From: Escherichia phage Sortsne | Sequence record: NC_048178.1 | Reading direction: 5' to 3' (one strand) | Length of the DNA stretch: 41,912 nucleotides | In this document: positions 4,442-30,477 of the stretch, in pieces | How positions within the stretch are numbered: position 1 is the first letter of the stretch | How the letters are laid out: the number at the start of each line of letters is the position of its first letter | The notes under the pieces: model-generated | What the model was told of the DNA's origin: nothing | What the model saw: only the letters and a program-made list of their open reading frames with translations | Databases searched by the model: none | Program-made: the position numbers and the translations under genes

Positions 4442-4494
4442 GATTCTACGTGCTACCCTTTAGCGGTTATTTAATTGTTAAAAGGGATCAGGCA

Positions 4495-4851
4495 ATGTCC
4501 GAACATACGACGCTCTGGCAATTGTTCCAGTTGTACCGGGTGGAGTTGGGTTATTCATTCATCGCGGCGTCTGTCGCGGTATTCCGTCACTGGCAATTAC
4601 GCCACCCATTCCGCGATATCGTAAGCGGCGGGGCCATCTGCGCGGCGGTGGCGTTCGGGATGAATAACATCCTGTCATTCTTTGGGGTCGATCATGGTAC
4701 GTGGGGTTATCTGGCGTCCGTGTTCCTGGGTTACGTGGGCGTGGAGACGGCGCTCGACTGGGCCAGCGAAAAGATCCCTTTCCTGAAAAAAATCCGCGCC
4801 ACCCCGGCGCATACTTCACCAGCGGAGGATCAGACCGATGGCAAAATTTAA
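4495..4851 (+). CDS. putative holin
   Basis: 118-aa protein with hydrophobic segments and charged C-terminus, immediately upstream of and overlapping the endolysin gene; position in lysis cassette. Confidence 0.5.
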   Translation: MSEHTTLWQLFQLYRVELGYSFIAASVAVFRHWQLRHPFRDIVSGGAICAAVAFGMNNILSFFGVDHGTWGYLASVFLGYVGVETALDWASEKIPFLKKIRATPAHTSPAEDQTDGKI

Positions 4852-5311
4852 GCTAAACGAACAGCGCCGCGCCTTTCTGGACGCGATCGCCTACTGCGAG
4901 GGGACCGACAACGGACGCCAGCAAACGCGAAACCACGGTTACGACGTGGTGGTGGGCGGCTCCCTGTTCTCCGACTATTCGAAGCATCCCGATCGCCTGG
5001 TGCGCCTGCGTCCGGGCCTCTCCTCCACGGCTGCTGGCCGCTACCAGTTGTTAAGCCGTTATTACGACGTGTACAAAAAACAGCTTGGCCTCCCGGACTT
5101 CGGGCCGGACAGCCAGGACCAGATCGCGCTCCAGCAAATCAGCGAGCGTAAAGCGCTGGAGGATATCGACGCGGGCCGGATCGAGTCTGCCGTGGCGAAG
5201 TGTAACAAGACGTGGGCCAGCCTGCCCGGCTCCCCTTACGGTCAGCATACCTACAGCATGGCCGTATTTCTGGAGCAATTCCGCAAGGCGGGCGGGAAGG
5301 TGGCCGCATGA
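4838..5311 (+). CDS. endolysin, lambda R-type lytic transglycosylase
   Basis: 157 aa; strong resemblance to lambda R as recalled (FLDAIAYCEGTDNGRQQTRNHGYDVVVGG...AGRYQLLSRYYD...WASLPG). Confidence 0.9.
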   Translation: MAKFKLNEQRRAFLDAIAYCEGTDNGRQQTRNHGYDVVVGGSLFSDYSKHPDRLVRLRPGLSSTAAGRYQLLSRYYDVYKKQLGLPDFGPDSQDQIALQQISERKALEDIDAGRIESAVAKCNKTWASLPGSPYGQHTYSMAVFLEQFRKAGGKVAA

Positions 5312-5829
5312 TCGCCGCCCTCCGGCTGTTCCTCTCGACTCACTGGCGCTTAGTGCTGCTGGCCGTTGTCGTGCTGCTGGCGCTGGGGGGATCTTTCTGG
5401 GCGGGCCACGAGTGGAGCGATCGCGCGTGGTCCAAACGCTGGGCGCAACGGGACGCGAACGACTCCTCCCAGGAAGCGAACGCACAAGCCGCCGCCCGTA
5501 TCATTGAACAGGGGCGAAACATCGCCCGCGAGGAGTCCGTAAAATATGCGAACGAACAGGCCGCAAAAGCTCGCGCCGCTGCTGCTGCTTCTGGTGCTGC
5601 CCTTGATCGGTTGCTCGAACGAGCCAGCAAGGAAGCCGCCCGACGCGAAGCCGCTGATCAGACCGCTGCCCTCGGAAGGGCGTCAGGGGAACAGACCGCC
5701 CGAATGTATTCCGACTTGCTCCGACGGACTGGAGAAGCTGCTCGACGGTATGCTGATATAGCGGAGGGGGCGATCACCGCTGGGGAGGTATGCGAAAGGA
5801 ATTACGACGCCGTGGAGCGTCAGCAATGA
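5308..5829 (+). CDS. i-spanin (Rz-like)
   Basis: N-terminal TM anchor then Ala/Arg/Glu-rich coiled-coil-like periplasmic region; directly after endolysin; contains embedded lipoprotein ORF. Confidence 0.7.
   Translation: MIAALRLFLSTHWRLVLLAVVVLLALGGSFWAGHEWSDRAWSKRWAQRDANDSSQEANAQAAARIIEQGRNIAREESVKYANEQAAKARAAAAASGAALDRLLERASKEAARREAADQTAALGRASGEQTARMYSDLLRRTGEAARRYADIAEGAITAGEVCERNYDAVERQQ
5546..5761 (+). CDS. o-spanin (Rz1-like), embedded in Rz in alternate frame
   Basis: 71-aa ORF wholly inside Rz; signal peptide with lipobox LIGC; proline-rich mature part. Confidence 0.65.
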   Translation: MRTNRPQKLAPLLLLLVLPLIGCSNEPARKPPDAKPLIRPLPSEGRQGNRPPECIPTCSDGLEKLLDGMLI

Positions 5830-7476: not shown

Positions 7477-7756
7477 ATGCTTTCCGAAGGGCGTCGTTAG
7501 CGTGGGCCATTGTCTCGCGGATCTCGCGCTTGGTGGCCTTCACCGCTTCCGGGCCAGCGGCCCACATACGGAGGCGGTTCTGGAGGCACTGCGCGTTAAA
7601 GGCCAGTGTCTGGGCCTGCGCCAGCATCAGCCAGCTTACGACCTTCGCGCGGTTCGGACGGGAGAAGATGGTCCCCATCTGATCGCCCCAGTATTTCGCG
7701 CGGAGGTCTGCCAGTGTTTCGCCGTTCTTGTTGGTGCGGATAGTTGCTGTATTCAT
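7466..7756 (-). CDS. hypothetical protein
   Basis: Start set at ATG 7756 (MNTATIRTNKNG...) with GAGGAGAC leader; first gene after promoter at 7790-7818. Confidence 0.4.
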   Translation of the reverse strand: MNTATIRTNKNGETLADLRAKYWGDQMGTIFSRPNRAKVVSWLMLAQAQTLAFNAQCLQNRLRMWAAGPEAVKATKREIRETMAHANDALRKAYGA

Positions 7757-7789
7757 CTTTCTGTCTCCTCGTGTTGGTGTGATAAAGAA

Positions 7790-7818
7790 TATAACAAAGG
7801 ATAAGTTTACCCGCAAGA
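7790..7818 (-). promoter_or_regulatory. sigma70-like promoter TTGCGG-N17-TATATT, flanked by ATCACGAAA and TTATCACA motifs
   Basis: Minus-strand reading; immediately downstream of an intrinsic terminator. Confidence 0.45.
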
Positions 7819-7837
7819 GGTTTTTTAATTATTTCGT

Positions 7838-7864
7838 GATAAAAGAGAAAAGGCCCCGGAGGGC
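7838..7864 (-). terminator. intrinsic terminator within early minus operon
   Basis: GGCCCTCCGGGGCC hairpin followed by TTTTCTCTTTT on minus strand; promoter 7790-7818 follows. Confidence 0.5.
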
Positions 7865-7869
7865 CTCGA

Positions 7870-8610
7870 TCAGAATGGGACGTTTGCCTGGTACACGGCG
7901 AGGGCGAAGCCTTCGGGGGTGGCGCTGCGGATGTTCTTCGTGCGGGTTGATGATCCTCCCAGCTTGGCCCATCCCGGATTGTTGGCGACTGCCGGGACTG
8001 GCTTATGGTCGGGCATGTTGAAAGCGCCGCCGCACCAGATCCCCGTCTGCTTCGGGTAGCTGTCCCGCGCCGGGTAGATCTCCGGGTAGAGGCTATGCTG
8101 GTGATCCTCCGGCAAGTAGCCGCCGAAGTGGTACGGGTGGAACCAATGATCGCAAGGTCGCCACATCGTGGAGAGCCGGGAGATCTTCGGGTTCTCCAGC
8201 ATCCAGGGGATAGCCTCCTTGTCGTCATATCCGCCGCTCTCATACGCGGCAAAGATCGCCACCTGCTCGACCATCTTCGCCAGCGCCACAGCCTTCTCCT
8301 GGAAGCGCGGATCTTTCTTCCGCTTCGCTTCCCACCAGCGCGCCCCGGTACAGGTAAGATCGGTACACTCGGCGAACGACGCCACGAACATAACGCCGGG
8401 GCCGACCTCCTCCGCAATGCGGAGCGCTTCGGCTTCGGTGTTGTCGGCGTCGAACATGCGGCCCACGCGGACCAGGTTCGGCTCCTCCGGGTCGCGGTGG
8501 ATGCCGTCCGGGTGCTGGCCGTCATACATCCAGCATTCATAGCCGCCCTTAAGCCACGGATCAACCATGATCCGGGTAAGGTTGAATAAGAAAATCGCCT
8601 TACCCGCCAT
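7870..8610 (-). CDS. hypothetical protein (replication-module associated)
   Basis: Start refined to ATG at 8610 (MAGKAIF...) adjacent to upstream stop; no confident motif. Confidence 0.45.
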   Translation of the reverse strand: MAGKAIFLFNLTRIMVDPWLKGGYECWMYDGQHPDGIHRDPEEPNLVRVGRMFDADNTEAEALRIAEEVGPGVMFVASFAECTDLTCTGARWWEAKRKKDPRFQEKAVALAKMVEQVAIFAAYESGGYDDKEAIPWMLENPKISRLSTMWRPCDHWFHPYHFGGYLPEDHQHSLYPEIYPARDSYPKQTGIWCGGAFNMPDHKPVPAVANNPGWAKLGGSSTRTKNIRSATPEGFALAVYQANVPF

Positions 8611-8611
8611 A

Positions 8612-9211
8612 TTAACCTCTCGCTGGCATGATGATAAACGTAGCCGGACCGCAAGGCGTTTCGAACTCCACGCGGAGCGGCTGATCCTTCGCGGCGAAGT
8701 GGAGAGAAGCAAACGGCATCTTAGCGCCGAACTTTTTCCCCAGCTTCTCAATCAGGCCCAGATACTCGGAGGCCACCTTGATCTCCGTGATAGCCTTCGC
8801 GCCTGCCTTCTGCCCGGAGATCAGGCGATCCACGTCAGGATAGCGAGCGTCCACGACGTCCACCGTCCCGACCGCGCCGCGCATCTTGCGGAAGTCATAC
8901 TCCGCGAGGTCCTTCGGCTTATCGGCGATCGCGCTGGTCCAGTAGACGATCCCGGCTTCCGTATCAATGACCGCCGTCGAAAAGGCCCGGCCACTGGGGG
9001 GAGTCGAGATCTTGAGGATAACGCCCTCCTCCGGGGCGTTTACCAGGCCGTGGGCGCTGGAGAGCGCCACGTGACCGTTAGAGGACTGGATCGTGTTGCC
9101 TTTCAGGTGGACGGCGTTCAGATAATAGCGGACGTCGTTCTTTGCCTGGGTCAGCGCGTGGGCGCGTAATGCTTCTACGGGTGCATAAATAATCATCTTT
9201 GAGCCTTCCAT
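8612..9211 (-). CDS. truncated DnaN-like sliding-clamp protein
   Basis: DVRYYLNAVHL resembles the DVRYYLNG motif of DNA polymerase III beta clamp, and C-terminal FIIMPARG resembles the clamp C-terminus; about half the length of DnaN. Confidence 0.45.
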   Translation of the reverse strand: MEGSKMIIYAPVEALRAHALTQAKNDVRYYLNAVHLKGNTIQSSNGHVALSSAHGLVNAPEEGVILKISTPPSGRAFSTAVIDTEAGIVYWTSAIADKPKDLAEYDFRKMRGAVGTVDVVDARYPDVDRLISGQKAGAKAITEIKVASEYLGLIEKLGKKFGAKMPFASLHFAAKDQPLRVEFETPCGPATFIIMPARG

Positions 9212-17221: not shown

Positions 17222-17252
17222 AGAAAGGGGCCAATTAAGGCCCCTTTTTTTA
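17222..17252. terminator. bidirectional intrinsic terminator between recombination operon and tailspike
   Basis: AAAGGGGCC-AATTAA-GGCCCCTTT plus T-run; convergent gene ends. Confidence 0.8.
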
Positions 17253-19625
17253 TGGTCCGCCAGTGATAGGCGGGCGGGTCTGGATCTGCTTATACATCCT
17301 GATCTGAGTCTCCGCCGGGATCGCCGTCTGGATGGCGTCCGCGATATCGACCACGATCGGCGCGCCGGAGTCACTCGGCGGCGTCTGGTACGGAGGGCGG
17401 ACGACCGTCGTCACGAGGTCAGCGCCACCAGCGCCAGCTTTCGGAATGACGATCCGCGTCCCAGGGGACAGCATGGTGGTATAGAGCCACGGCGATCCGG
17501 TAGAGGTCCCGTTAGGCGTTAACCACTGCGTGATCGACTTCTGGCCCACGCTCGCGGCCATGATCTTCGCCTGGTTCCCGGTCGGGAAGTACGCGCCAGC
17601 CTCCACGACGAGGTAAGGCTTAAGCCCCACGATCCCGTTAGGTCCGTTAGCCGGATCGTTGCCGCCGTAGTCGTAAGTCCAGACCAGATCGCCGCGGTCG
17701 AACTCGCGGCCACAGGGGAAGAAGTTGCCATATCCGCCGTGGGCCGTGATATCCGGGAAAAACTGTTTAGACACGTTTCCCAGCATAGCGCCCAGCGAGC
17801 CGTCGATGTTGACATACATCCGGGCCTCAATATTGGAATTGACAATATTGATATTGCTGTAACGGCACTTGCTCCACGCCTGCGTCGTCGGGTTCCGGCT
17901 GTTAACGTTGACCATGTTCAGGACGGATTTAGTCCTGATATATTCCCCGTTCGAGGTGGTCCCGCCGCTGGAGTCGTCGCCCACCGCGTCCAGTTCCCAG
18001 CATTGAACGTTAAACATATCAAGCTGAGTCGCCACGCCGAAGATCGTCAGTTTGTAACAGTCGATATTCTCCAGTTTTACCCGGTTATCGTGGGGGGATC
18101 GGTTAACGCCCGGCGTCGGGTCGCCACGGTCAGCGGCCACAGGGCAGTAAACACGGCCCGTTTTCGTGCGGACGTTGCGGATCGTATAGTTGCGCGGAGA
18201 GGACAGACGCGGCGGCCCCCATTCCATATGGATAATGCGGAGATCGTGGACGTCGGTCGAGGCGTTGGTGACAGGCTCCCCGTCCACGCCGTCGATCACG
18301 AAGTCTTTACAGCCCGACGTGTAGATCCCGGCGGTGGTGATGCCAGTCCCCACGGACATATTCACATCCGGGTTAACGGTCACATTCTGGATCGTGAAGT
18401 CGCGCCCCATTTCAACGTGAATACACTGTTTACACTGGTTAACGAGAACGTTACGGATCGTGAAGTTGCGCGCGTAGTTCTCGTCAGGCAGATCCCAGCC
18501 ATAAGGGCCTTTACCCGCGATACCGATCCCCAGGCCCCAGTTAGAAGCGAAGTTGCCGGGGTTAATGCCGTTGATGTTGTCGAGGAGGATATTTTCGATA
18601 ACGCAACCATTTTCAAAGCATTGATGGACCACGTTTAGCTCGATCCCGTCGCCCTGCATGTTAACAAATGCGAGGTTGCGGAAGATGCCGCGAGACATAA
18701 ACGCATTGCCGCCCTGGTGAATGATCCCGTTATAGCCGTTCGTAAACAGGCATCCGTCCATCTCGATCGTTCCCCAGATCTGAGGACCGCCGGACTGTAC
18801 GCCCTGGATGTTGACATGAGAGTTATTGCTCCCCCCAGGGATGCCGTCATACCAACAATCAAACATCCGCACGTCGCCGCCGTCATGGCGCATACGGTGG
18901 CCGTTACGGCCTAACACGTTTCGTAAGGTCGTATTCTGACACCACATCGAACGACCGCGCCACGTACCGCCGATCACCTCGCAGTTAACAAAGCGGGGAT
19001 CGTTGCCCGTCAGCGTCCAGTCGCCACCACGGATCACGATGTTACTCGCGGTAAGGATGCCGTTAGTCGTGCCTTTCCAGCCATGCGCCCAGACTTCGAG
19101 GCCGTTCGCGCTGGCGTAGTCAAACATCGCCTGTAAAGCCTGCGTTACGCTGGTGTATTCCGGCTTGCCGACGAAGTTCCACGGCGTCACGTAGCCGTTT
19201 AGCTGCTCCTGCACGTTGCCGACTGGCGTCCCGACATAGCTCGCGCCCTTCCCGGAGATCAGGAGGCTCCACATCTGCGCCGGGTCGTATTCGAACAGGT
19301 TCCCGAAATAGTATTGTTGGACGTCGTTACGGTCGTAAACGGCCATAGACGCCTCGATCTTCGTGACCAGCTTCACCACTTGACCATTCCAGATCGGGAA
19401 GCCGACGACGTTCGTCCGTACAGGCTGCGGGATAGGGGTCAGGGTTAGATCCTCGTTCTCGACGTAGATCTGGACCTGGTTCTCCGGGTTCGTCGGGTCG
19501 GTGTCGGCCTTTCCTGCGTAGATCTTCCCGTCCACCAGCGAGGCGAATCGGTCCTTACGAAAGAACGGTTGCGACGGCATCCCTAACGTGCTGAATACCT
19601 CAAGTTGTGCCATGAATCGCTCCAT
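17250..19625 (-). CDS. tailspike protein (P22-type N-terminal head-binding domain plus beta-helix receptor-binding/depolymerase domain)
   Basis: N-terminus GKIYAGKADTDPTNPENQVQIYVENED...NGQVVKLVT...SMAVYD closely parallels the P22 tailspike N-domain as recalled; the rest has beta-helix-like repeats. Confidence 0.85.
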   Translation of the reverse strand: MERFMAQLEVFSTLGMPSQPFFRKDRFASLVDGKIYAGKADTDPTNPENQVQIYVENEDLTLTPIPQPVRTNVVGFPIWNGQVVKLVTKIEASMAVYDRNDVQQYYFGNLFEYDPAQMWSLLISGKGASYVGTPVGNVQEQLNGYVTPWNFVGKPEYTSVTQALQAMFDYASANGLEVWAHGWKGTTNGILTASNIVIRGGDWTLTGNDPRFVNCEVIGGTWRGRSMWCQNTTLRNVLGRNGHRMRHDGGDVRMFDCWYDGIPGGSNNSHVNIQGVQSGGPQIWGTIEMDGCLFTNGYNGIIHQGGNAFMSRGIFRNLAFVNMQGDGIELNVVHQCFENGCVIENILLDNINGINPGNFASNWGLGIGIAGKGPYGWDLPDENYARNFTIRNVLVNQCKQCIHVEMGRDFTIQNVTVNPDVNMSVGTGITTAGIYTSGCKDFVIDGVDGEPVTNASTDVHDLRIIHMEWGPPRLSSPRNYTIRNVRTKTGRVYCPVAADRGDPTPGVNRSPHDNRVKLENIDCYKLTIFGVATQLDMFNVQCWELDAVGDDSSGGTTSNGEYIRTKSVLNMVNVNSRNPTTQAWSKCRYSNINIVNSNIEARMYVNIDGSLGAMLGNVSKQFFPDITAHGGYGNFFPCGREFDRGDLVWTYDYGGNDPANGPNGIVGLKPYLVVEAGAYFPTGNQAKIMAASVGQKSITQWLTPNGTSTGSPWLYTTMLSPGTRIVIPKAGAGGADLVTTVVRPPYQTPPSDSGAPIVVDIADAIQTAIPAETQIRMYKQIQTRPPITGGP

Positions 19626-19651
19626 TAAAAAGGGGGCCTAAGCCCCCGTTA

Positions 19652-22600
19652 TTATTGCTGCTCGTCGGCTGCTGCTGCCCTGCCTGCTCCGCCACCTCCG
19701 CCAGCAAGGAAGCCCACGATCCCGGCCCGGCTGATCGCGGCCTGCTCGTCCGGCGTCATGGAGGCGATCAGCGCCTTCCACTCCGGGGAGTTAGCGGCGG
19801 CTTGTTCAGCCTCATTGACGAAGGTCCGGCCCGCCGGGGTTAGCTTGCCGGAACTCTGCGCCGCTGCCGCCTGGAGAAGTTTATTAAAGTTTCCCCCAGA
19901 AAGCACGTTATCCGCCAGCACAGATCGAGGGACGCGGGTCGCCCGGCTTGCTGCCTGCGCTGCGGACAATGCGGCGTTACCTGCCGGGCCTAACGTGTAC
20001 AGCGCGGCGGCATGTTTCCCCAGGAAGCCAGCGGCCCCGTACAGCTTGGACATTACGCCACCAGCGCCGGGATCGTTAAATCGCTTCATAAACTCACTGA
20101 TCGATCCGGTCGAGGTGGTGAATCGCTGGGCGCGATCGATGCCCTGAGCCACGCGGTAAATCTGCATAAAGCGGCGTTGTTGCTCGCGGGGTAAATGCTT
20201 CATTACGGAGCCTAACGTCCCGTTAGCCTGGGCGGTGCGATACCAGTCCACAAAGCCCGGAATGGCGAAGTTATTCCGCGCGCTACGTGCGCCCAGGGTA
20301 CGCTCCAGCGCGTTAGCCACTACGTCGGACTTGAGGCTGTCCGGGGTTGCGGCCATCAGCTTGTCCCAGTCCCTCGCGCTGCCGCCCTTCTTGCCCAGGT
20401 TCAGGATCGCACTCTGCACTTTCCCGGTGATCGAGTTGTCGAGGTTTTTCCCCAGGACTTCGAGGGCCTGAGTCTCCAGGTCCTTACGGCGTTTAACAAG
20501 CTGTTTCCCCACATTCCAGTCGTCCGCCGCGCCATACTGGGCCGCGACTCGCTCCTGGTCGTCAGTCAGGCGGGCATAAAGCTGTTTAAGCTGCGCCGGG
20601 ACTTCATCCTTAAACGGGCCGTTTTTCTTGTTCAGCGCCTCGCCGACCTGCTTCCGAAGGGTGTCCAGTCGGGCGTAAGTCGGGATCGTCGAAACACTCT
20701 GATCAGGGAGTCCCGTCACTGGGTCCACCTTCCCAGGCTTCGGAGCCATCCAGTCGAGCGCCTTTTTCTCTGCTGCGGAAAGGTACTCGTCCCCGCCTAA
20801 CTCGTCAGCCTTCGCCGTCAGATAATCCACGGTGCTGTCCGGCCTTACTTCGGCGTTGCGGGGGATCTTGGCGCTCACGGCGTTATAAGCCTTTTCCGCC
20901 TCGTCGCCCAGTCCGTCGATAATGGCGCGGGTGCGGGCGGCAAACGCCTGATCGATGGTCTGCGCGTTCATGCTGGTCATGCTGTCGATCAGATCGTCGG
21001 CCTTCTCGCTTAAACGCGCGATCCCGTTTAACTGCTGCGTTTCCAGGTTGGAGCCTTTGGCGCTAACAAGCTGCTGGATCGTGCTGCGGAAATTGGTATC
21101 ACGAGCATAAGCCGCCGGGGTCAGTTGGTCCTCAATCCCCAGATCGCGGGCGGTTTTCATCAGCTTTTTATCGACGTCGGCCATGTTCGCCAGATCGATC
21201 GCCTCGTCAGACGCGCGGAGCGTCTCACCGTTCGCGCCCTGTACGTTACGATCGGGGGTGAGTCGGAACTTGCTCGCATCACGCGCCACAGCGTCGGAAA
21301 TGCCCGCCTCGGACGCCTGGGTGGATCGTGCTGCATCTGCCGCCGCGTCTGCACCAGCCCCACCAGCGGCCCCAGCGCCTTCACCAGCGCCCCGGACGGC
21401 CTGCCACAGCTTACCAGCCCCGCCGATGATAGCTCGGCCCACAGCCTCGCCAGCGGGCGCTAGTGCGATGTTGGTCAGCGTCTCCTCCGGGTCCCCACGG
21501 CCAGCGGCCACCGCACCAGGAACGGCGCGAGCCGCCGGAGCGGCTACCCAGCGTTGGACGGCATCGGCGACGCGGGTCCCGAATTGAGCGACGTCCGGCG
21601 CGTCACGCACGATCCCCATAAGCTCCTCGGCTGCTGCGGCCTTACGCGGCCCCGGCAACGGCGCGAGCATATCGCCGATCAGGGTCCCGATCTGCGCGTA
21701 TTTGTCCGTCGGCCCCTCAAATCCGGGAATCCCCCCAGGGGTGATAGTCGGCGCTTGGGTGCTCTCGTCCACAATCCCCAGCCCCTTCCCGGCATCGGTC
21801 ACGGCGTTGGAGATCATGTTCGCCAGCGAGATCGGCGTGTTCAGGAGGTCGATCCCGGTCTGGGCCACGCCTCGCGCTGCCTGTTCGACGCTGCCGCCTA
21901 ACTTCCGCCAGTTTTCGGCGGCTTCGGCGTTAGGGTCGGTTTGTCCGGGGAGATTAGCTCCGCCCGGCTCTCCGTTACCGTTCGGCGCTGCCGCCCCTTG
22001 TGCGCCATCAGATCCCGCTTGATTAGGTGCATTGCCAGCGGCGACGGCTGCGACTTGTTGATCGGCCCCTCCGGCTCCGGCGGCTGCTCCATCTCCTCCA
22101 GTTCGGGGGGAATATTCCCCGAATTGATCGAATACATTACCAGACTGAGACGAGCCGCCAGCGCGGGCGCTGGTTGCACGTTGAACAGGTTCAGCGCTAC
22201 CGCCAGGCCCTCGGCCAGTCCACTCATTAAAACGTTCATCCACATATTGACGCCCCTCCGGGCCAGGTTGTGCCTGTCCCGCGATCTGTTTATCTACATT
22301 GCCGGGGCCGTCGTGGTAAGCCTGGAGCGCGAGGCCCCAGTCTCCGTAACGCTGGTACATCTGGGAAAGGTACTGCGCCCCGGCGTCAGCCTGGAGCGCG
22401 GGATCGCGCTGTAGCTCGTTCCAGTTGTACCCCATACCCTCCGCCGTTGGCCTCATGACCTGAGTCAAGCCATAAGCGCCAGCGGAAGAACGCGCGGAGG
22501 TCGGATCAGCTTCGCCGCCCGTCTCCTTGCTCGCCAATGCCTGCATGATGCCAGCGGGTAGTCCCCATTTAGCCCCGGCGCTCTCAAGTAGATCAGCATA

Positions 22601-22699
22601 GCCGTCGCCCGTCGATCCCGGTTGCGTAGGAATCTGATTAGGGAGCGCCGTCGCAGATTTCGGCATGTTCTGATCGAATTGGTCGAATACGTTAGCCAT
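19652..22699 (-). CDS. ejection/internal virion protein with N-terminal lytic transglycosylase (SLT) domain
   Basis: 1015 aa; SLT motifs ALASKETGG, GAYGLTQVM, AYHDGPGNV; long Gly/Ala-rich helical remainder. Confidence 0.8.
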   Translation of the reverse strand: MANVFDQFDQNMPKSATALPNQIPTQPGSTGDGYADLLESAGAKWGLPAGIMQALASKETGGEADPTSARSSAGAYGLTQVMRPTAEGMGYNWNELQRDPALQADAGAQYLSQMYQRYGDWGLALQAYHDGPGNVDKQIAGQAQPGPEGRQYVDERFNEWTGRGPGGSAEPVQRATSARAGGSSQSGNVFDQFGEYSPRTGGDGAAAGAGGADQQVAAVAAGNAPNQAGSDGAQGAAAPNGNGEPGGANLPGQTDPNAEAAENWRKLGGSVEQAARGVAQTGIDLLNTPISLANMISNAVTDAGKGLGIVDESTQAPTITPGGIPGFEGPTDKYAQIGTLIGDMLAPLPGPRKAAAAEELMGIVRDAPDVAQFGTRVADAVQRWVAAPAARAVPGAVAAGRGDPEETLTNIALAPAGEAVGRAIIGGAGKLWQAVRGAGEGAGAAGGAGADAAADAARSTQASEAGISDAVARDASKFRLTPDRNVQGANGETLRASDEAIDLANMADVDKKLMKTARDLGIEDQLTPAAYARDTNFRSTIQQLVSAKGSNLETQQLNGIARLSEKADDLIDSMTSMNAQTIDQAFAARTRAIIDGLGDEAEKAYNAVSAKIPRNAEVRPDSTVDYLTAKADELGGDEYLSAAEKKALDWMAPKPGKVDPVTGLPDQSVSTIPTYARLDTLRKQVGEALNKKNGPFKDEVPAQLKQLYARLTDDQERVAAQYGAADDWNVGKQLVKRRKDLETQALEVLGKNLDNSITGKVQSAILNLGKKGGSARDWDKLMAATPDSLKSDVVANALERTLGARSARNNFAIPGFVDWYRTAQANGTLGSVMKHLPREQQRRFMQIYRVAQGIDRAQRFTTSTGSISEFMKRFNDPGAGGVMSKLYGAAGFLGKHAAALYTLGPAGNAALSAAQAASRATRVPRSVLADNVLSGGNFNKLLQAAAAQSSGKLTPAGRTFVNEAEQAAANSPEWKALIASMTPDEQAAISRAGIVGFLAGGGGGAGRAAAADEQQ

Positions 22700-24018
22700 T
22701 AAAGCCCCTCCGGTAAGAATCCGTATTTTTCCTTAAACTGCTGCTTAACGCTAGGGGTCGGGTTCGAATACAGATAATTAATGGCCGCGCTCGCGTTGGT
22801 CGGGTCCATCCCCCCAGACGAAAGCTGTCCGATTGCCGATTGTTTGGCGTCGTCCTGCTGGATATCCCGGCGGTAGGACTCCACGCGCCCGCCCTGCGAC
22901 TTCTCGATCGCGTCCTTGCCCTTGCTGAGTGCGGTCACGTAGCGCGTCATAACGTCCTTAAGCTGCTGCTCGTTCATGGTGCGCGGGTCTGCGTTGATCA
23001 GCGCCTGAGCGGCTGCGCGGCCCTCCTGCTCGGTAACGGGACCAGTACCGCGTAAAGACTGAATACCCGCGACGCGGGCCTGATCTTTAAGCTGGTTAAA
23101 CTGATTCATGATCTCCGCCGTGGCATCGCCGCCGCCAGTCACGAAAGAGGCCCCACGGTTCAGCGCGCCCAGGTTGCCCGTCACGTAGGCCAGATCCTTA
23201 CGCTGGAGGAGTCGCTGGGCCTGGTCGATCGCCGTGGTGATCGGGGCGAGTTGCGTCTCGTAGGTCTGCAAAAAGTCGCGCTTCGTGTTCAGGCTGTCCT
23301 GTTGCATTTTTTGCTGCTGCTGCGCGTACTTCTGGCGCTCAATATCGTTCCTTTCCTGCGAGATCCGCGTGTTGAGGCGCTCGGTCTGGAGGCCGATATA
23401 TTTCAGGTTACGATCCGCCGCTTTCGCTGAGGCGTCCAGGTCCTGCCCCCGGATCGTGGTCTGGTTCTTCATCGTCTCTTTGGCGTAGTCCAGTTGATCC
23501 TTACTGGTATTGCTCGCCAGGTGGAGAGCCTGCACCGAACGACGGAAGCCCTCCGGGTCAGACGTGGCCGACTGGAGCGCGCGCTGAGGATCGATCCCCA
23601 TCGCCTGGAGTGCCTGCGCGTTCTGCTGCACAAATGCCGCCGCCTGCTCCGGTCCCTGCGAGAGAGCGACGTCCGCCTGGCTGGCAAGGCTTGCGCCCTG
23701 CTGCTGGCGCATCGTGTCCAGAAGGCCCAGGCGCTTCTGTAACGCCTCGATCTGGTTCGGGTACTTGTACGCCAGATCCTGGAGTTTCGACGGGTCCCCG
23801 GCTGCGGCCTGCCAGTCAGCATTAAATTGCTTCATCTGCTCGGCCTGGAGTCCTGCCTGTTTCATGGCCTGGCCCCGGATCTGGTTCTCCTGAAATTGCG
23901 CCGTGTTCTGCTGGATCTTGCCGTAGTTGTTCAGCGTGTCTTGTGCGCCCTGTTGAATGATCCCGATATTCTGCGCAAAAGATCCGATGTTGGGATCTGC
24001 TCCGAAGATAGCCGCCAT
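22699..24018 (-). CDS. ejection protein (gp20-like by position)
   Basis: 439-aa Gln-rich coiled-coil protein in the P22-like ejection cluster; 1-nt start/stop overlaps. Confidence 0.55.
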   Translation of the reverse strand: MAAIFGADPNIGSFAQNIGIIQQGAQDTLNNYGKIQQNTAQFQENQIRGQAMKQAGLQAEQMKQFNADWQAAAGDPSKLQDLAYKYPNQIEALQKRLGLLDTMRQQQGASLASQADVALSQGPEQAAAFVQQNAQALQAMGIDPQRALQSATSDPEGFRRSVQALHLASNTSKDQLDYAKETMKNQTTIRGQDLDASAKAADRNLKYIGLQTERLNTRISQERNDIERQKYAQQQQKMQQDSLNTKRDFLQTYETQLAPITTAIDQAQRLLQRKDLAYVTGNLGALNRGASFVTGGGDATAEIMNQFNQLKDQARVAGIQSLRGTGPVTEQEGRAAAQALINADPRTMNEQQLKDVMTRYVTALSKGKDAIEKSQGGRVESYRRDIQQDDAKQSAIGQLSSGGMDPTNASAAINYLYSNPTPSVKQQFKEKYGFLPEGL

Positions 24019-24668
24019 TAGATAAAGCTCCCGAACATGTTACCGAAAGAGTTAACGTCTTGCGCTGCCCCCTGAGAGAGCGCGTTCTGGCTGTACCCGG
24101 CCACCTGCCACGGCAAGGCCGCTTTAGCCGCGTTAACGTTGCCTTTCTGAGACTGGAGGCCCAGAAGGGTGTTAGTGCCTTGTGCTGCGGTCGCAGACTG
24201 CGCGCCAGCGCCGGACAGGCCCACGTTAACAAGCCCCATAAGCTGGTTATACATATCCTGCTGCTGGGCCGTCTGCTGCGCGAGATAGTTCTGGCCTAAC
24301 GTCGGCGCGATCGATGCCAGCGCGTTATTAGTGGCCGAACTCCCCAGCCCGCCCGTCGCTTCCGCTGCGGCCAGTTGCGATCGTCGTGCTGCCTCCTCCG
24401 ACTGCGCGAACTCCTGCCCGCCGTAATACTGGGAGAGCGACTTCTCTCGATCGATCGGCTGGCCCGCCAGCGCCACAAGGTCGGGTAGTGCATTGGTCCC
24501 GGCTTCACGGAATGGAGACAGCCAGGCGTCCTGTCGCTCCATTAGATCGCGCTGCCAGTCCATCTGTTTGTCGAGGCTTTTCTGTTGCTGCTTCGCCGCC
24601 TTGTTCGCGCCGATGCCGCCTAAGATACCCCCGACGGCGTTACCGATCCCACTGATAGCTCCGCCCAT
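24018..24668 (-). CDS. ejection protein (gp7-like by position)
   Basis: 216 aa, Gly-rich N-terminus and Gln/Ala-rich body; assigned by position. Confidence 0.5.
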   Translation of the reverse strand: MGGAISGIGNAVGGILGGIGANKAAKQQQKSLDKQMDWQRDLMERQDAWLSPFREAGTNALPDLVALAGQPIDREKSLSQYYGGQEFAQSEEAARRSQLAAAEATGGLGSSATNNALASIAPTLGQNYLAQQTAQQQDMYNQLMGLVNVGLSGAGAQSATAAQGTNTLLGLQSQKGNVNAAKAALPWQVAGYSQNALSQGAAQDVNSFGNMFGSFI

Positions 24669-28235: not shown

Positions 28236-29498
28236 TTACGCGGGCTGCTTCGGTAATACCAGGCCCACATATTCCGGGACCAGTACAGTAGTACCGTACA
28301 GCGTGGTAAAACGAGCGGTACACGCGCCGCTGATATGGTTGAAGTCGTAGGACATGATCAGAGTCGCGCCCTGTTTGGTGGTGCTGCGCATCACCTTCGG
28401 CCCCATATCGGACGGGAACGCCAGATTACCCCACATCAATTCCACGGAGCCGTCGGCCCATGCCAGGTTAGCGTTAGCCGCGACTTTGTTGATCACGGTC
28501 AGCGCTGCGCCGGAGGCTGCGTTCGCGTCCACGTTGGAGTAAGGACGGGAAGCCAGATCCGCGTTATCCGGCGGGAGGATCTGCGGGGTGATCGTGATGT
28601 TGTTGCCGGACACTTCCAGGACGCGGAACGTCTGGAGGTAGTCGGTCGTGTCTTTGCTGATCTGGTGTACAGAGTGAACGCCCGCGATAGTGAAGGCGTC
28701 GCCCGCTTCCAGACCGTGACCAGCGGAGACAGCGATCACGCCCTGGCGGTTATCCACCGGGATATCGTTCGCGTTCTTCGATACGACCTTATGCGCCGGG
28801 GCGGCGGTAAGGGTGATCGCACCAGTCGGACCAGCGCCCAGACGCGGGGAGATATCGGTCTTGTAAGCGTCGAAGCTCGCAATATCCGGGATCTTCGCTT
28901 TTTCAAAGGCGGATTGGTTGATGCCGGAGCTATACGCGCGGCCAGCCAGTTCTCCCGCGATATCCTTATAGGAGAAGGCGTTCAGGAACGCGCGACGGCT
29001 AACGCCCGCCGGGATGCCGATCGAGGTCATGAGGGCGTCCAGTTCTGCGAAGCTGTTCCACAGATCTTTACCCAGCGTACCAGTCGAGTTATCGCCGACG
29101 GTCACGACGTTAGTCGCGTAACGGCCTGCGGTGTTGATCAGGTCGGAGTCGATCTTCGCTGCGATACGCTGCGCGGCTGCGCGGCCCATTTCTTTCATGT
29201 ACTCCGGGTTACGCATTTCGCGCGCGTCCAGAGTCCACAGGACGTTCTGAGGCTCTTTATAAGCGGACGGGACCAGACGCTCGACGATATCGGTCGGACG
29301 CTTACCAGTCAGATCCAGACCTTCCAGGAGGTCGGCGTGGTAACGCTGCGGGCGGTAAATTACATCGCCTGCGCGCTGCATGGTCTTATCTTCCGGGCGG
29401 AACTTCGCCGCGTTCTGGGAGACTACGCAAGAGGCGTCGAAGCTCTCCACGTACTCCTCGAACATGATTTCAATCGTTTTTACATGCTGGTTAGCCAT
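28236..29498 (-). CDS. major capsid (coat) protein
   Basis: 420 aa, position after scaffold as in P22, followed by an intrinsic terminator; size matches P22 coat. Confidence 0.75.
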   Translation of the reverse strand: MANQHVKTIEIMFEEYVESFDASCVVSQNAAKFRPEDKTMQRAGDVIYRPQRYHADLLEGLDLTGKRPTDIVERLVPSAYKEPQNVLWTLDAREMRNPEYMKEMGRAAAQRIAAKIDSDLINTAGRYATNVVTVGDNSTGTLGKDLWNSFAELDALMTSIGIPAGVSRRAFLNAFSYKDIAGELAGRAYSSGINQSAFEKAKIPDIASFDAYKTDISPRLGAGPTGAITLTAAPAHKVVSKNANDIPVDNRQGVIAVSAGHGLEAGDAFTIAGVHSVHQISKDTTDYLQTFRVLEVSGNNITITPQILPPDNADLASRPYSNVDANAASGAALTVINKVAANANLAWADGSVELMWGNLAFPSDMGPKVMRSTTKQGATLIMSYDFNHISGACTARFTTLYGTTVLVPEYVGLVLPKQPA

Positions 29499-29529
29499 GC
29501 TCTTTTCTCCACCGATGGATTAAAAATGG

Positions 29530-30477
29530 TTAGTCTTTTTTCAGCTTTTCTTTCATGGCGAAATAATCCGTCCAGTCCCCGGACTGCTGCGCCTTAGCGC
29601 GCGCTGCCTCAAGTTGGCCGATATTTTTCGCCCCGCCGCTTCCCTTAACTTTGGGCGCGCCGTTAACGTCCCGTTTCACCTTCGGCGCGGTCCCTGCTCG
29701 GCGATCGATATCGGCGATTAGGTAGCCCAGGCGAATATGGTCGCTAGTATAGGCTTCTTCGATCTCCTGTCGCAATTTTTCATTGCGGGCCAGTGCCATA
29801 ACGGTAAGCGTCGGTTTCTGGCTGTTCAGGAGTAAAGCGGCCTGTAACGGCTCCGGCAATTCTGCCACGATCTCCTCGGCTCGTTCATAGCCTGCGATCT
29901 TCTTGATCGCGGTCGCGCGTTCTTCCCGGTAGACCTTGCCCTTTTCTTCGAGTTTGGTCTGGAATACCTGCGCGCGCTGCTGCTGTTCCTGCTGGCGGGC
30001 TTCGATCTTGCCTTTCTGCTCGTGCCATTCGTCCAGCTTCTCCGCGAGTTTCTCCGGGTCCCAGTCGATCCCCTCGTCGCCTAACTGCGGCTTAGGAGGT
30101 ACTTCGAGCGGGAGCGGGCCGGATTGCTGCGGCTGCTGCTGGGTGGATTGCTTAAGAGCGCGTTTTTGCTCGCGGATCGTCGCGCGTAGGCGCTTCACCG
30201 TTTCGCTGTCTTGTTCCTGATCATCGTCGTCGGTGGCTGGAGCGGCCAGGGCCTCGCCGTCGAAGGTAAACTCCTCCTCGTCGTCCTCGCCTTCGTTACC
30301 TTCGCCGCCTTCGCTGCCTTCGCTGCCTTCGCCGTCGTTGTCGTCGGTGTCGGTGTCGGTGCTGCGGTCGGTGTCGGTGTCGTTGTCGCGGTCGTCGTCG
30401 TGGTTCTGGTTGTCCAGATCCGCGTCGGTGGTGGTTACTTCTTCGTTGTCGTTGCCTACGTCCTGATTTCCGAACAT
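29530..30477 (-). CDS. scaffolding protein
   Basis: 315 aa, highly acidic repetitive N-terminus (TDTDTD, EGSEGSEG), coiled-coil body, basic C-terminus; directly upstream of coat. Confidence 0.65.
   Translation of the reverse strand: MFGNQDVGNDNEEVTTTDADLDNQNHDDDRDNDTDTDRSTDTDTDDNDGEGSEGSEGGEGNEGEDDEEEFTFDGEALAAPATDDDDQEQDSETVKRLRATIREQKRALKQSTQQQPQQSGPLPLEVPPKPQLGDEGIDWDPEKLAEKLDEWHEQKGKIEARQQEQQQRAQVFQTKLEEKGKVYREERATAIKKIAGYERAEEIVAELPEPLQAALLLNSQKPTLTVMALARNEKLRQEIEEAYTSDHIRLGYLIADIDRRAGTAPKVKRDVNGAPKVKGSGGAKNIGQLEAARAKAQQSGDWTDYFAMKEKLKKD
30290..30420. repeat. intragenic short tandem repeats (CCTTCGCYG and GTCGGT units) in the scaffold gene
   Basis: Encodes the acidic EGSEGSEG / TDTDTD low-complexity tract. 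Confidence 0.5.

Follow-up and report, generated by a model that had tools for sequence, protein, structure and literature searches.

The gene at positions 19652..22699 (minus strand) of Escherichia phage Sortsne (NC_048178.1) most likely codes for an internal ejection protein with a predicted wall-cutting SLT head, the largest of the three such proteins (of the gp7, gp20 and gp16 types) in a podophage with P22 architecture. Sortsne (MK651787; 41,912 bp, 60.0% GC) is the type species of Sortsnevirus (PMC7552041). By 'the window' we mean the whole stretch of DNA that was analysed, 41,912 nucleotides (nt) in length.

A first-pass annotation of this DNA, made from the letters alone, had placed an open reading frame (ORF) of 1015 amino acids (aa) at 19652-22699 without giving its strand. 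The ORF list and the translation agree with this placement and show an ATG-initiated ORF that fills the interval on the minus strand. The plus-strand reading of the same interval was rejected, since stops interrupt its frame throughout. A Shine-Dalgarno sequence, GGAGGGG, lies ahead of the ATG, which overlaps the stop codon of the gp20-type gene by 1 nt (TAATG); genes 20 and 16 of P22 overlap in the same TAATG. The designation of the whole gene as that of an SLT plus gp16-type ejection (DNA transfer) protein is based on the ORF list, the Pfam SLT match, phrog_770 and 85% aa identity to gp26 of phage IME_EC2 (YP_009784225.1).

The beginning of the protein had been described as a lytic transglycosylase domain, and this description is supported by profile, motifs and predicted fold alike. 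Pfam SLT (PF01464) matched aa 38-143 (profile positions 3-109 of 117, E=6.9e-18, 64.8 bits compared to a gathering score of 21.3), which as a sequence match lies far beyond chance. Using this match, the AlphaFold2 (AF2) model, Foldseek and profile matches in the PDB, the domain was delimited to aa 32-164 (22208..22606, minus strand). The three SLT motifs originally recognised near the N-terminus, ETGG (aa 59-62), GAYGLTQVM (aa 74-82) and AYHDGPGNV (aa 127-135), are all present, and all three fall into the region matched by Pfam.

When the protein was aligned with Sf101 gp13, T7 gp16 and diverse homologues, Glu59 was found to be invariant and to align with E37 of T7 gp16, the residue that has been named as catalytic in that protein (PMC8954989). 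G-L-x-Q (GLTQ, aa 77-80) and A-Y-x-x-G (AYHDG, aa 127-131) are conserved in the same alignment, and in a HMMER alignment Glu59 pairs with the 'QES' motif of Slt70. The E-S/T motif is kept by all 41 homologues examined, down to 23% overall identity. Conservation of the motifs over this range is the pattern expected of a working active site. The close relatives have the canonical E-S, whereas the sequence here reads K-E-T-G-G. The alignment with T7 gp16, the 41 homologues and the Slt70 motif together support Glu59 of the K-E-T motif as the predicted catalytic residue; its codon is at 22523..22525 on the minus strand.

A search of the PDB with the single 1015-aa sequence gave no matches, and a family profile was required. 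This profile matched Slt70 (4e-9), Slt of P. aeruginosa, MltE, MltC and T7 gp16 (residues 10-117, about 1e-6; structures 7eyb_I, 7k5c and 6yt5). In the AF2 model aa 32-164 have a predicted local distance difference test score (pLDDT) of 80-97, and aa 1-31 are predicted to be disordered. When the SLT model was submitted to Foldseek, it matched 5ohu (Slt), 1qte (Slt70), 4p0g, 3t36 and 7eyb_I with a probability of 1.00, and MltF and MltE were also among the matches; the superposition on T7 gp16 (7eyb_I) had a root-mean-square deviation of 2.9 A over 134 columns (E=6.5e-4). The model thus has the alpha-helical fold of goose-type lysozyme. Sequence and predicted fold identify the N-terminal domain as a lytic transglycosylase of family 1 whose active site appears intact. 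The same catalytic-domain fold and the E-S, GLxQ and AYNxG motifs occur in Slt70, MltE, P. aeruginosa Slt and MltF, but these carry other accessory domains and do housekeeping work as periplasmic enzymes or lipoproteins. In the Sortsne protein, on the other hand, the SLT domain forms part of a phage ejection protein and presumably must traverse the tail channel.

The SLT domain is followed by a stretch that is rich in Gly, Ala, Pro and Gln (aa 165-262; 21914..22207, minus strand). The long Gly/Ala-rich region noticed in the first reading is indeed there: glycine and alanine make up 44% of aa 165-262 (A 23%, G 21%; net charge -7) and 45% of aa 350-480. Structure prediction, which had been proposed as a check on this region, gave an AF2 pLDDT below 50 over aa 165-262, so that this part is predicted to be a disordered tether. 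Its length varies among the aligned homologues.

Downstream of the tether lies a conserved module (aa 267-441; 21377..21901, minus strand) that is homologous to approximately residues 61-195 of P22 gp16. BLASTP aligned aa 272-347 with residues 73-134 of P22 gp16 (E=8e-5), and hhalign aligned aa 267-441 with residues 61-195 (Prob 93.4%, E=2.5e-7). Between Sf101 gp13 and P22 gp16 the module is 81% identical. It holds the segments of highest hydrophobicity in both the 1015-aa protein and P22 gp16, with peaks at aa 278 and 411 that correspond to the P22 peaks at 79, 132 and 165, and the pattern of weak hydrophobicity resembles that of P22 gp16. On a larger scale, aa 142-964 matched the profile phrog_770 ('DNA transfer protein') from position 3 to 667 of 668 (E=4.4e-108); P22 gp16 itself is a full-length member of this group (profile positions 2-663, E=2.3e-266).

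The remainder of the protein is a C-terminal all-alpha body (aa 480-1015; 19655..21262, minus strand) with a confident core at aa ~509-860 (nt 20120-21175). AF2 models the body as helices, with pLDDT 80-92 for model residues 245-595. Its matches in BFVD are numerous predicted proteins of phages, 650-1000 aa long, and include one named 'Injection protein'. A search with the body only in a library of 1.84 billion proteins returned 806 cluster representatives. An N-terminal SLT domain is present in 27 of the 147 best-scoring of these 806 (18%), and in 8 of the 55 representatives of the body family that were scanned with Pfam.

The position of the gene points in the same direction. On the minus strand the order is terminase, portal, scaffold, coat (PF11651, P22 coat family), a 190-aa ORF, gp4 (PF11650, P22_Tail-4), gp10 (PF11134, Phage_stabilise), needle (phrog_1219), an ORF at the gp14 position, gp7, gp20, the 1015-aa gene and the tailspike. 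The gene is therefore the last of the 7-20-16 ejection genes and lies downstream of the tail genes 4-10-26-14. The claim of a P22-like gene order holds, as the order 5-4-10-26-14-7-20-16-...-9 matches that of P22, including the 1-nt overlap of genes 20 and 16. The gp20-type ejection protein (439 aa; 22699..24018, minus strand) was identified by PF16928 Inj_translocase (E=1.5e-12) and phrog_2534 (E=8e-94), and the gp7-type ejection protein (216 aa; 24018..24668, minus strand) by PF25688 P22_gp7 (E=3.3e-21) and phrog_598 (E=9e-52). By its profile match, its gp16 module and synteny, the 1015-aa protein is a member of the P22 gp16/phrog_770 family. The earlier assignment as an ejection protein of the gp16 type is borne out by phrog_770, the P22 gp16-homologous module and the gene position, and at 1015 aa compared to 609 aa it is, as had been said, much larger than P22 gp16.

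P22 gp16 occupies the same slot, has the same 1-nt overlap with gene 20, belongs to the same phrog_770 and contains similar weakly hydrophobic Gly/Ala-rich segments. It has, however, neither the SLT head nor the long linker, and its C-terminal body can barely be aligned with the 1015-aa protein. Several observations weigh against the assignment of the whole protein as a wall-cutting gp16. When aa 480-1015 were compared to residues 190-608 of P22 gp16 by hhalign, the alignment was colinear over 186 columns but reached only E=0.007 and Prob 5.6%. As this comparison of the bodies is marginal, homology to P22 gp16 over the whole length rests on the PHROG profile and synteny, and the phrog_770 profile may pool several body types. 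The body gave no fold match in the PDB by Foldseek (nothing below E=0.1, the chains of T7 gp16 included). Moreover, the protein has no classical transmembrane helix (the maximum Kyte-Doolittle mean over 19 residues is 1.09), and the same is true of P22 gp16. A literature search found no paper on the protein or any close homologue. The marginal alignment of the bodies is consistent with what has been published on the gp16 proteins of P22-like phages, which are only 22-26% identical, highly mosaic and functionally exchangeable (PMC10883804).

We also compared the protein with T7 gp16 (1318 aa; PDB 7EYB, 7K5C and 9JYY), in which an N-terminal SLT domain is likewise carried by the largest ejection protein. 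Homology was found to T7 residues 1-156: BLASTP aligned aa 5-153 with T7 gp16 1-139, and the heads are homologous up to the extreme N-terminus (FDQFDQNMP here and MDKYDKNVP in T7 gp16). Beyond about residue 150, no sequence similarity to T7 gp16 was detected by profile or BLASTP searches. Kinship with the remaining ~1150 residues of T7 gp16, which comprise the tape, the transmembrane region and the cytoplasmic hub, was considered and rejected, as neither a sequence match nor a Foldseek match was obtained. The N-terminal transglycosylase of T7 gp16 decorates the periplasmic tunnel and is needed for genome entry if the peptidoglycan is highly cross-linked; in T7 the ejection proteins are stacked into an ordered core, unlike the P22-like ones (PMC8954989). 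The presumed role in common is to breach the peptidoglycan during formation of the channel. By analogy, the 1015-aa protein would work like T7 gp16 but, beyond the head, stands outside the T7 gp16 family. The first-pass annotation had spoken of a protein analogous to T7 gp16 in a P22-like gene order, which agrees with our results and slightly understates the likeness, since homology between the SLT heads is detectable (Glu59 corresponds to E37 of T7), while the bodies are unrelated.

Taken together with the literature on P22 and T7, homology and synteny lead us to infer that the SLT head would clear a passage through the sacculus for the DNA conduit. The capsid would hold about a dozen copies of the protein, judging from P22, whose virions inject about 12 copies of gp16 (PMC8402733). 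Once the phage has adsorbed, gp7 and gp20 would leave through the tail first, and the 1015-aa protein would be expelled after them to form the distal, inner-membrane end of a trans-envelope DNA channel. In P22, gp7, gp20 and gp16 join one after another at the tail hub and build a channel of ~50 nm that reaches the cytoplasm (PMC13622523). The N-terminal 160 residues would act as an active family-1 lytic transglycosylase with Glu59 as general acid, and the disordered, acidic, Gly/Ala-rich linker of ~100 residues would tether this head to the channel-forming gp16 module. The head would then cut the bonds between N-acetylmuramic acid and N-acetylglucosamine locally, which would allow the gp20/gp16 conduit to pass the sacculus. 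As for T7 gp16, the need for this activity might be greatest when the wall is highly cross-linked, in cold or stationary-phase cells. T7 gp16 mutants in the transglycosylase motif reportedly show a delay specific to such conditions (Moak and Molineux, 2000).

Three other explanations were weighed against this wall-cutting ejection protein. The SLT head could be catalytically inert and only bind peptidoglycan, thereby fixing the channel in the sacculus or setting its position there. The residue after the motif-I Glu is indeed Thr in this lineage ('KETGG') and not the canonical Ser, and the long flexible linker that tethers the domain is what an anchor might have. Nevertheless, the Glu and both downstream motifs are kept in all 41 homologues to 23% identity, close relatives have E-S, and the homologous domain of T7 is catalytic (PMC8954989), so we regard an inert head as very unlikely. 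The possibility that the gene encodes an end-of-infection lysis enzyme, main or auxiliary, comes to mind because SLT-type enzymes are endolysins in some phages and because the SLT region gave weak matches to phrog_669 and phrog_1044 ('endolysin'). However, overlapping genes for a holin/antiholin (phrog_126), an endolysin (phrog_90; 4838-5311) and an Rz-like spanin (phrog_312) are encoded elsewhere, at 4450-5829 on the plus strand. Since this lysis cassette is complete, the SLT head should not be the lysis enzyme. In addition, the gene lies inside the virion structural operon, and its 850-aa body has no role in models of lysis. A lysis function can hardly be considered at all.

The groups phrog_21143 and phrog_2013 bear the labels 'lytic tail fiber' or 'lytic tail protein', and among PDB sequences the SLT region matches a tape-measure protein (9b45_a) best. 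Both would fit an external tail-associated lysin, as implied by the RefSeq label of Sf101 gp13 ('lytic tail fiber protein'), instead of an internal ejection protein. The 'lytic tail' labels are automatic names, though, and the gene sits in the gene-16 slot directly after gp7 and gp20, with translational coupling. It has a module in common with P22 gp16, a proven ejection protein, while the tail parts gp4, gp10, needle and tailspike each have genes of their own, and the body is predicted to be all-alpha, unlike fibres. We consider a tail lysin highly improbable.

The wall-cutting ejection protein has counterparts in related phages. The gene is 77-83% identical in DNA, and the protein 73-85% identical, to those of IME_EC2 (Murrayvirus), Lumpael, ST231, KMB41, IME279, Kc237 and sortregn, where they are labelled 'transglycosylase', 'lytic transglycosylase' or 'DNA transfer protein' ('hypothetical protein' in sortregn). 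The best match of a phage record to the window has about 80% nt identity. The proteins of IME_EC2, Lumpael, sortregn, ST231, KMB41, IME279, sortkaff, Kc237 and Skarpretter are 977-1050 aa long and have in common the architecture of SLT, linker and gp16 body as well as the gene neighbourhood. Compared to the IME_EC2 group, the differences of the Sortsne protein are limited to sequence divergence and linker length; for instance, IME_EC2 has K-E-S-S-G, whereas the lineage studied here has K-E-T-G-G with a two-residue insertion. In Skarpretter the same architecture is annotated as one coding sequence (CDS) of 977 aa, and in KMB41 and Kc237 the annotation is split into 'lytic transglycosylase' and 'DNA transfer protein'.

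Further away, gp13 of the Shigella phage Sf101 (YP_009153087.1, 911 aa; Lederbergvirus) also combines SLT and gp16 at the gene-16 slot and is 31% identical over aa 34-998. Dozens of SLT plus P22-type gp16 proteins of ~790 aa, labelled 'lytic transglycosylase domain-containing protein' or 'DNA transfer protein', were found in Cronobacter, Klebsiella, E. coli and Kosakonia. Sf101 gp13 and these prophage proteins have an N-terminal SLT domain, NPFAQ repeats, the gp16 module and a helical body, and occupy the gene-16 position of temperate P22-like elements. Their SLT domain starts from residue 1-5, so that, unlike the Sortsne protein, they have neither the 33-residue leader nor the first copy of the motif described below. 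The 790-aa proteins also differ in their C-terminal body, which is of the P22 type (phrog_29117) and not of the phrog_6704 type found here. For the 790-aa proteins in our set (P0043-P0074) a precomputed Pfam match to PF26808.1 was noted. An apparent SLT-less homologue from sortsyn (sortsyn_1), in a set of 700-746-aa proteins with P0030-P0032, was rejected: its match begins at position 1-2 of the record and has a further location in it, as results when a circularly permuted genome is linearised. The same cause is presumed for the SLT-less form of P0030 and P0032.

At the level of annotation at least, the combination of SLT and gp16 is not new: records of several phage genera and of many prophages have carried such labels since 2013 or earlier. 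Our literature search found no paper that explicitly describes a gp16 with SLT in P22-like phages, and according to a 2022 review P22-like phages lack the SLT domain, a statement based on P22, Sf6, HK620 and CUS-3 only. Sf101 and many P22-like prophages do carry SLT, and the review needs to be corrected on this point. The presence of SLT in Sf101, in prophages and in 18% of the 147 best body relatives supports the view that the ejectosome can exchange its wall-cutting function as a module. It also provides a natural system in which SLT-plus and SLT-less gp16 can be compared in otherwise P22-like virions. What is new here is modest and concerns the review's claim of SLT absence and a co-varying N-x-F-D-Q-F motif around the SLT cassette.

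This motif was found by regular-expression search. One copy, NVFDQF at aa 3-8, lies at the extreme N-terminus (22676..22693, minus strand), and the second, also NVFDQF, at aa 188-193 just past the SLT domain (22121..22138, minus strand). These are the only two occurrences of NVFDQF in the six-frame translation of the window, and their DNA is identical at 16 of 18 positions. Across about 35 homologues the two copies co-vary by lineage, as NVFDQF/NVFDQF, NFFDQF/NFFDQF or NPFAQF/NPFAQF. Two SLT-less members of the body family (P0181 and P0218) start with 'MANVFDQFDDQENVFDQFDD' and 'MADANAFDQFDDEAVTNLNPFDQFDEE', in which both copies of the motif are adjacent. The sequences compared suggest that the SLT cassette entered an N-terminal tandem of this motif, between its two copies.

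Other domains were found in the same protein family. P0170 (1212 aa) consists of SLT, an ADP-ribosyltransferase (aa 714-829) and the body, and P0153 (1255 aa) of an SLT-like domain, a zeta-toxin-like domain (aa 570-663) and the body. Such extra cargo, placed between head and body, resembles the 'polyvalent protein' theme, reportedly set out by Iyer and colleagues in 2017, and one BFVD match of the body is named after this theme. A speculative idea, to which we give a rather small chance, is that the N-terminus of gp16 is a general site of cargo insertion marked by the acidic-aromatic N-x-F-D-Q-F. The motif might then serve as a signal for docking (to gp20, to the portal or for incorporation into the procapsid) or as a recombination joint, P22-type phages would swap injected enzymes at this site, and gp16 would be a scaffold for effector delivery and not only a part of the channel.

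Between the stop codon of the 1015-aa gene and the ATG of the tailspike gene there is a gap of 26 nt. It contains a strong terminator-like hairpin (19632..19647, minus strand) of six G-C pairs and a loop of four (GGGGGC-TTAG-GCCCCC), followed by TTTTT, which might dampen read-through to the tailspike gene. In P22, this place between the ejection-protein and tailspike genes is occupied by the immI region. The 791-aa tailspike (17250-19625, minus strand) carries the head-binding domain of the P22 type (PF09008, E=5e-34). The match of its body to phrog_6117 ('colanic acid degradation', E=3e-233) suggests, at the level of sequence, that colanic acid or capsule is the receptor.

No tRNAs were found in the 41,912-nt window. 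The homologue of gp20 in IME_EC2 (7676-9000) is annotated as two overlapping CDS of 843 and 486 nt, whereas a single 439-aa ORF is present here; the split probably reflects a frameshift or sequencing error in the IME_EC2 record. Finally, a 420-aa ORF on the plus strand (28335-29597) runs antisense to the coat gene (28236-29498, minus strand), which also encodes 420 aa. This ORF is most likely a by-product of high GC and codon bias and not a gene.

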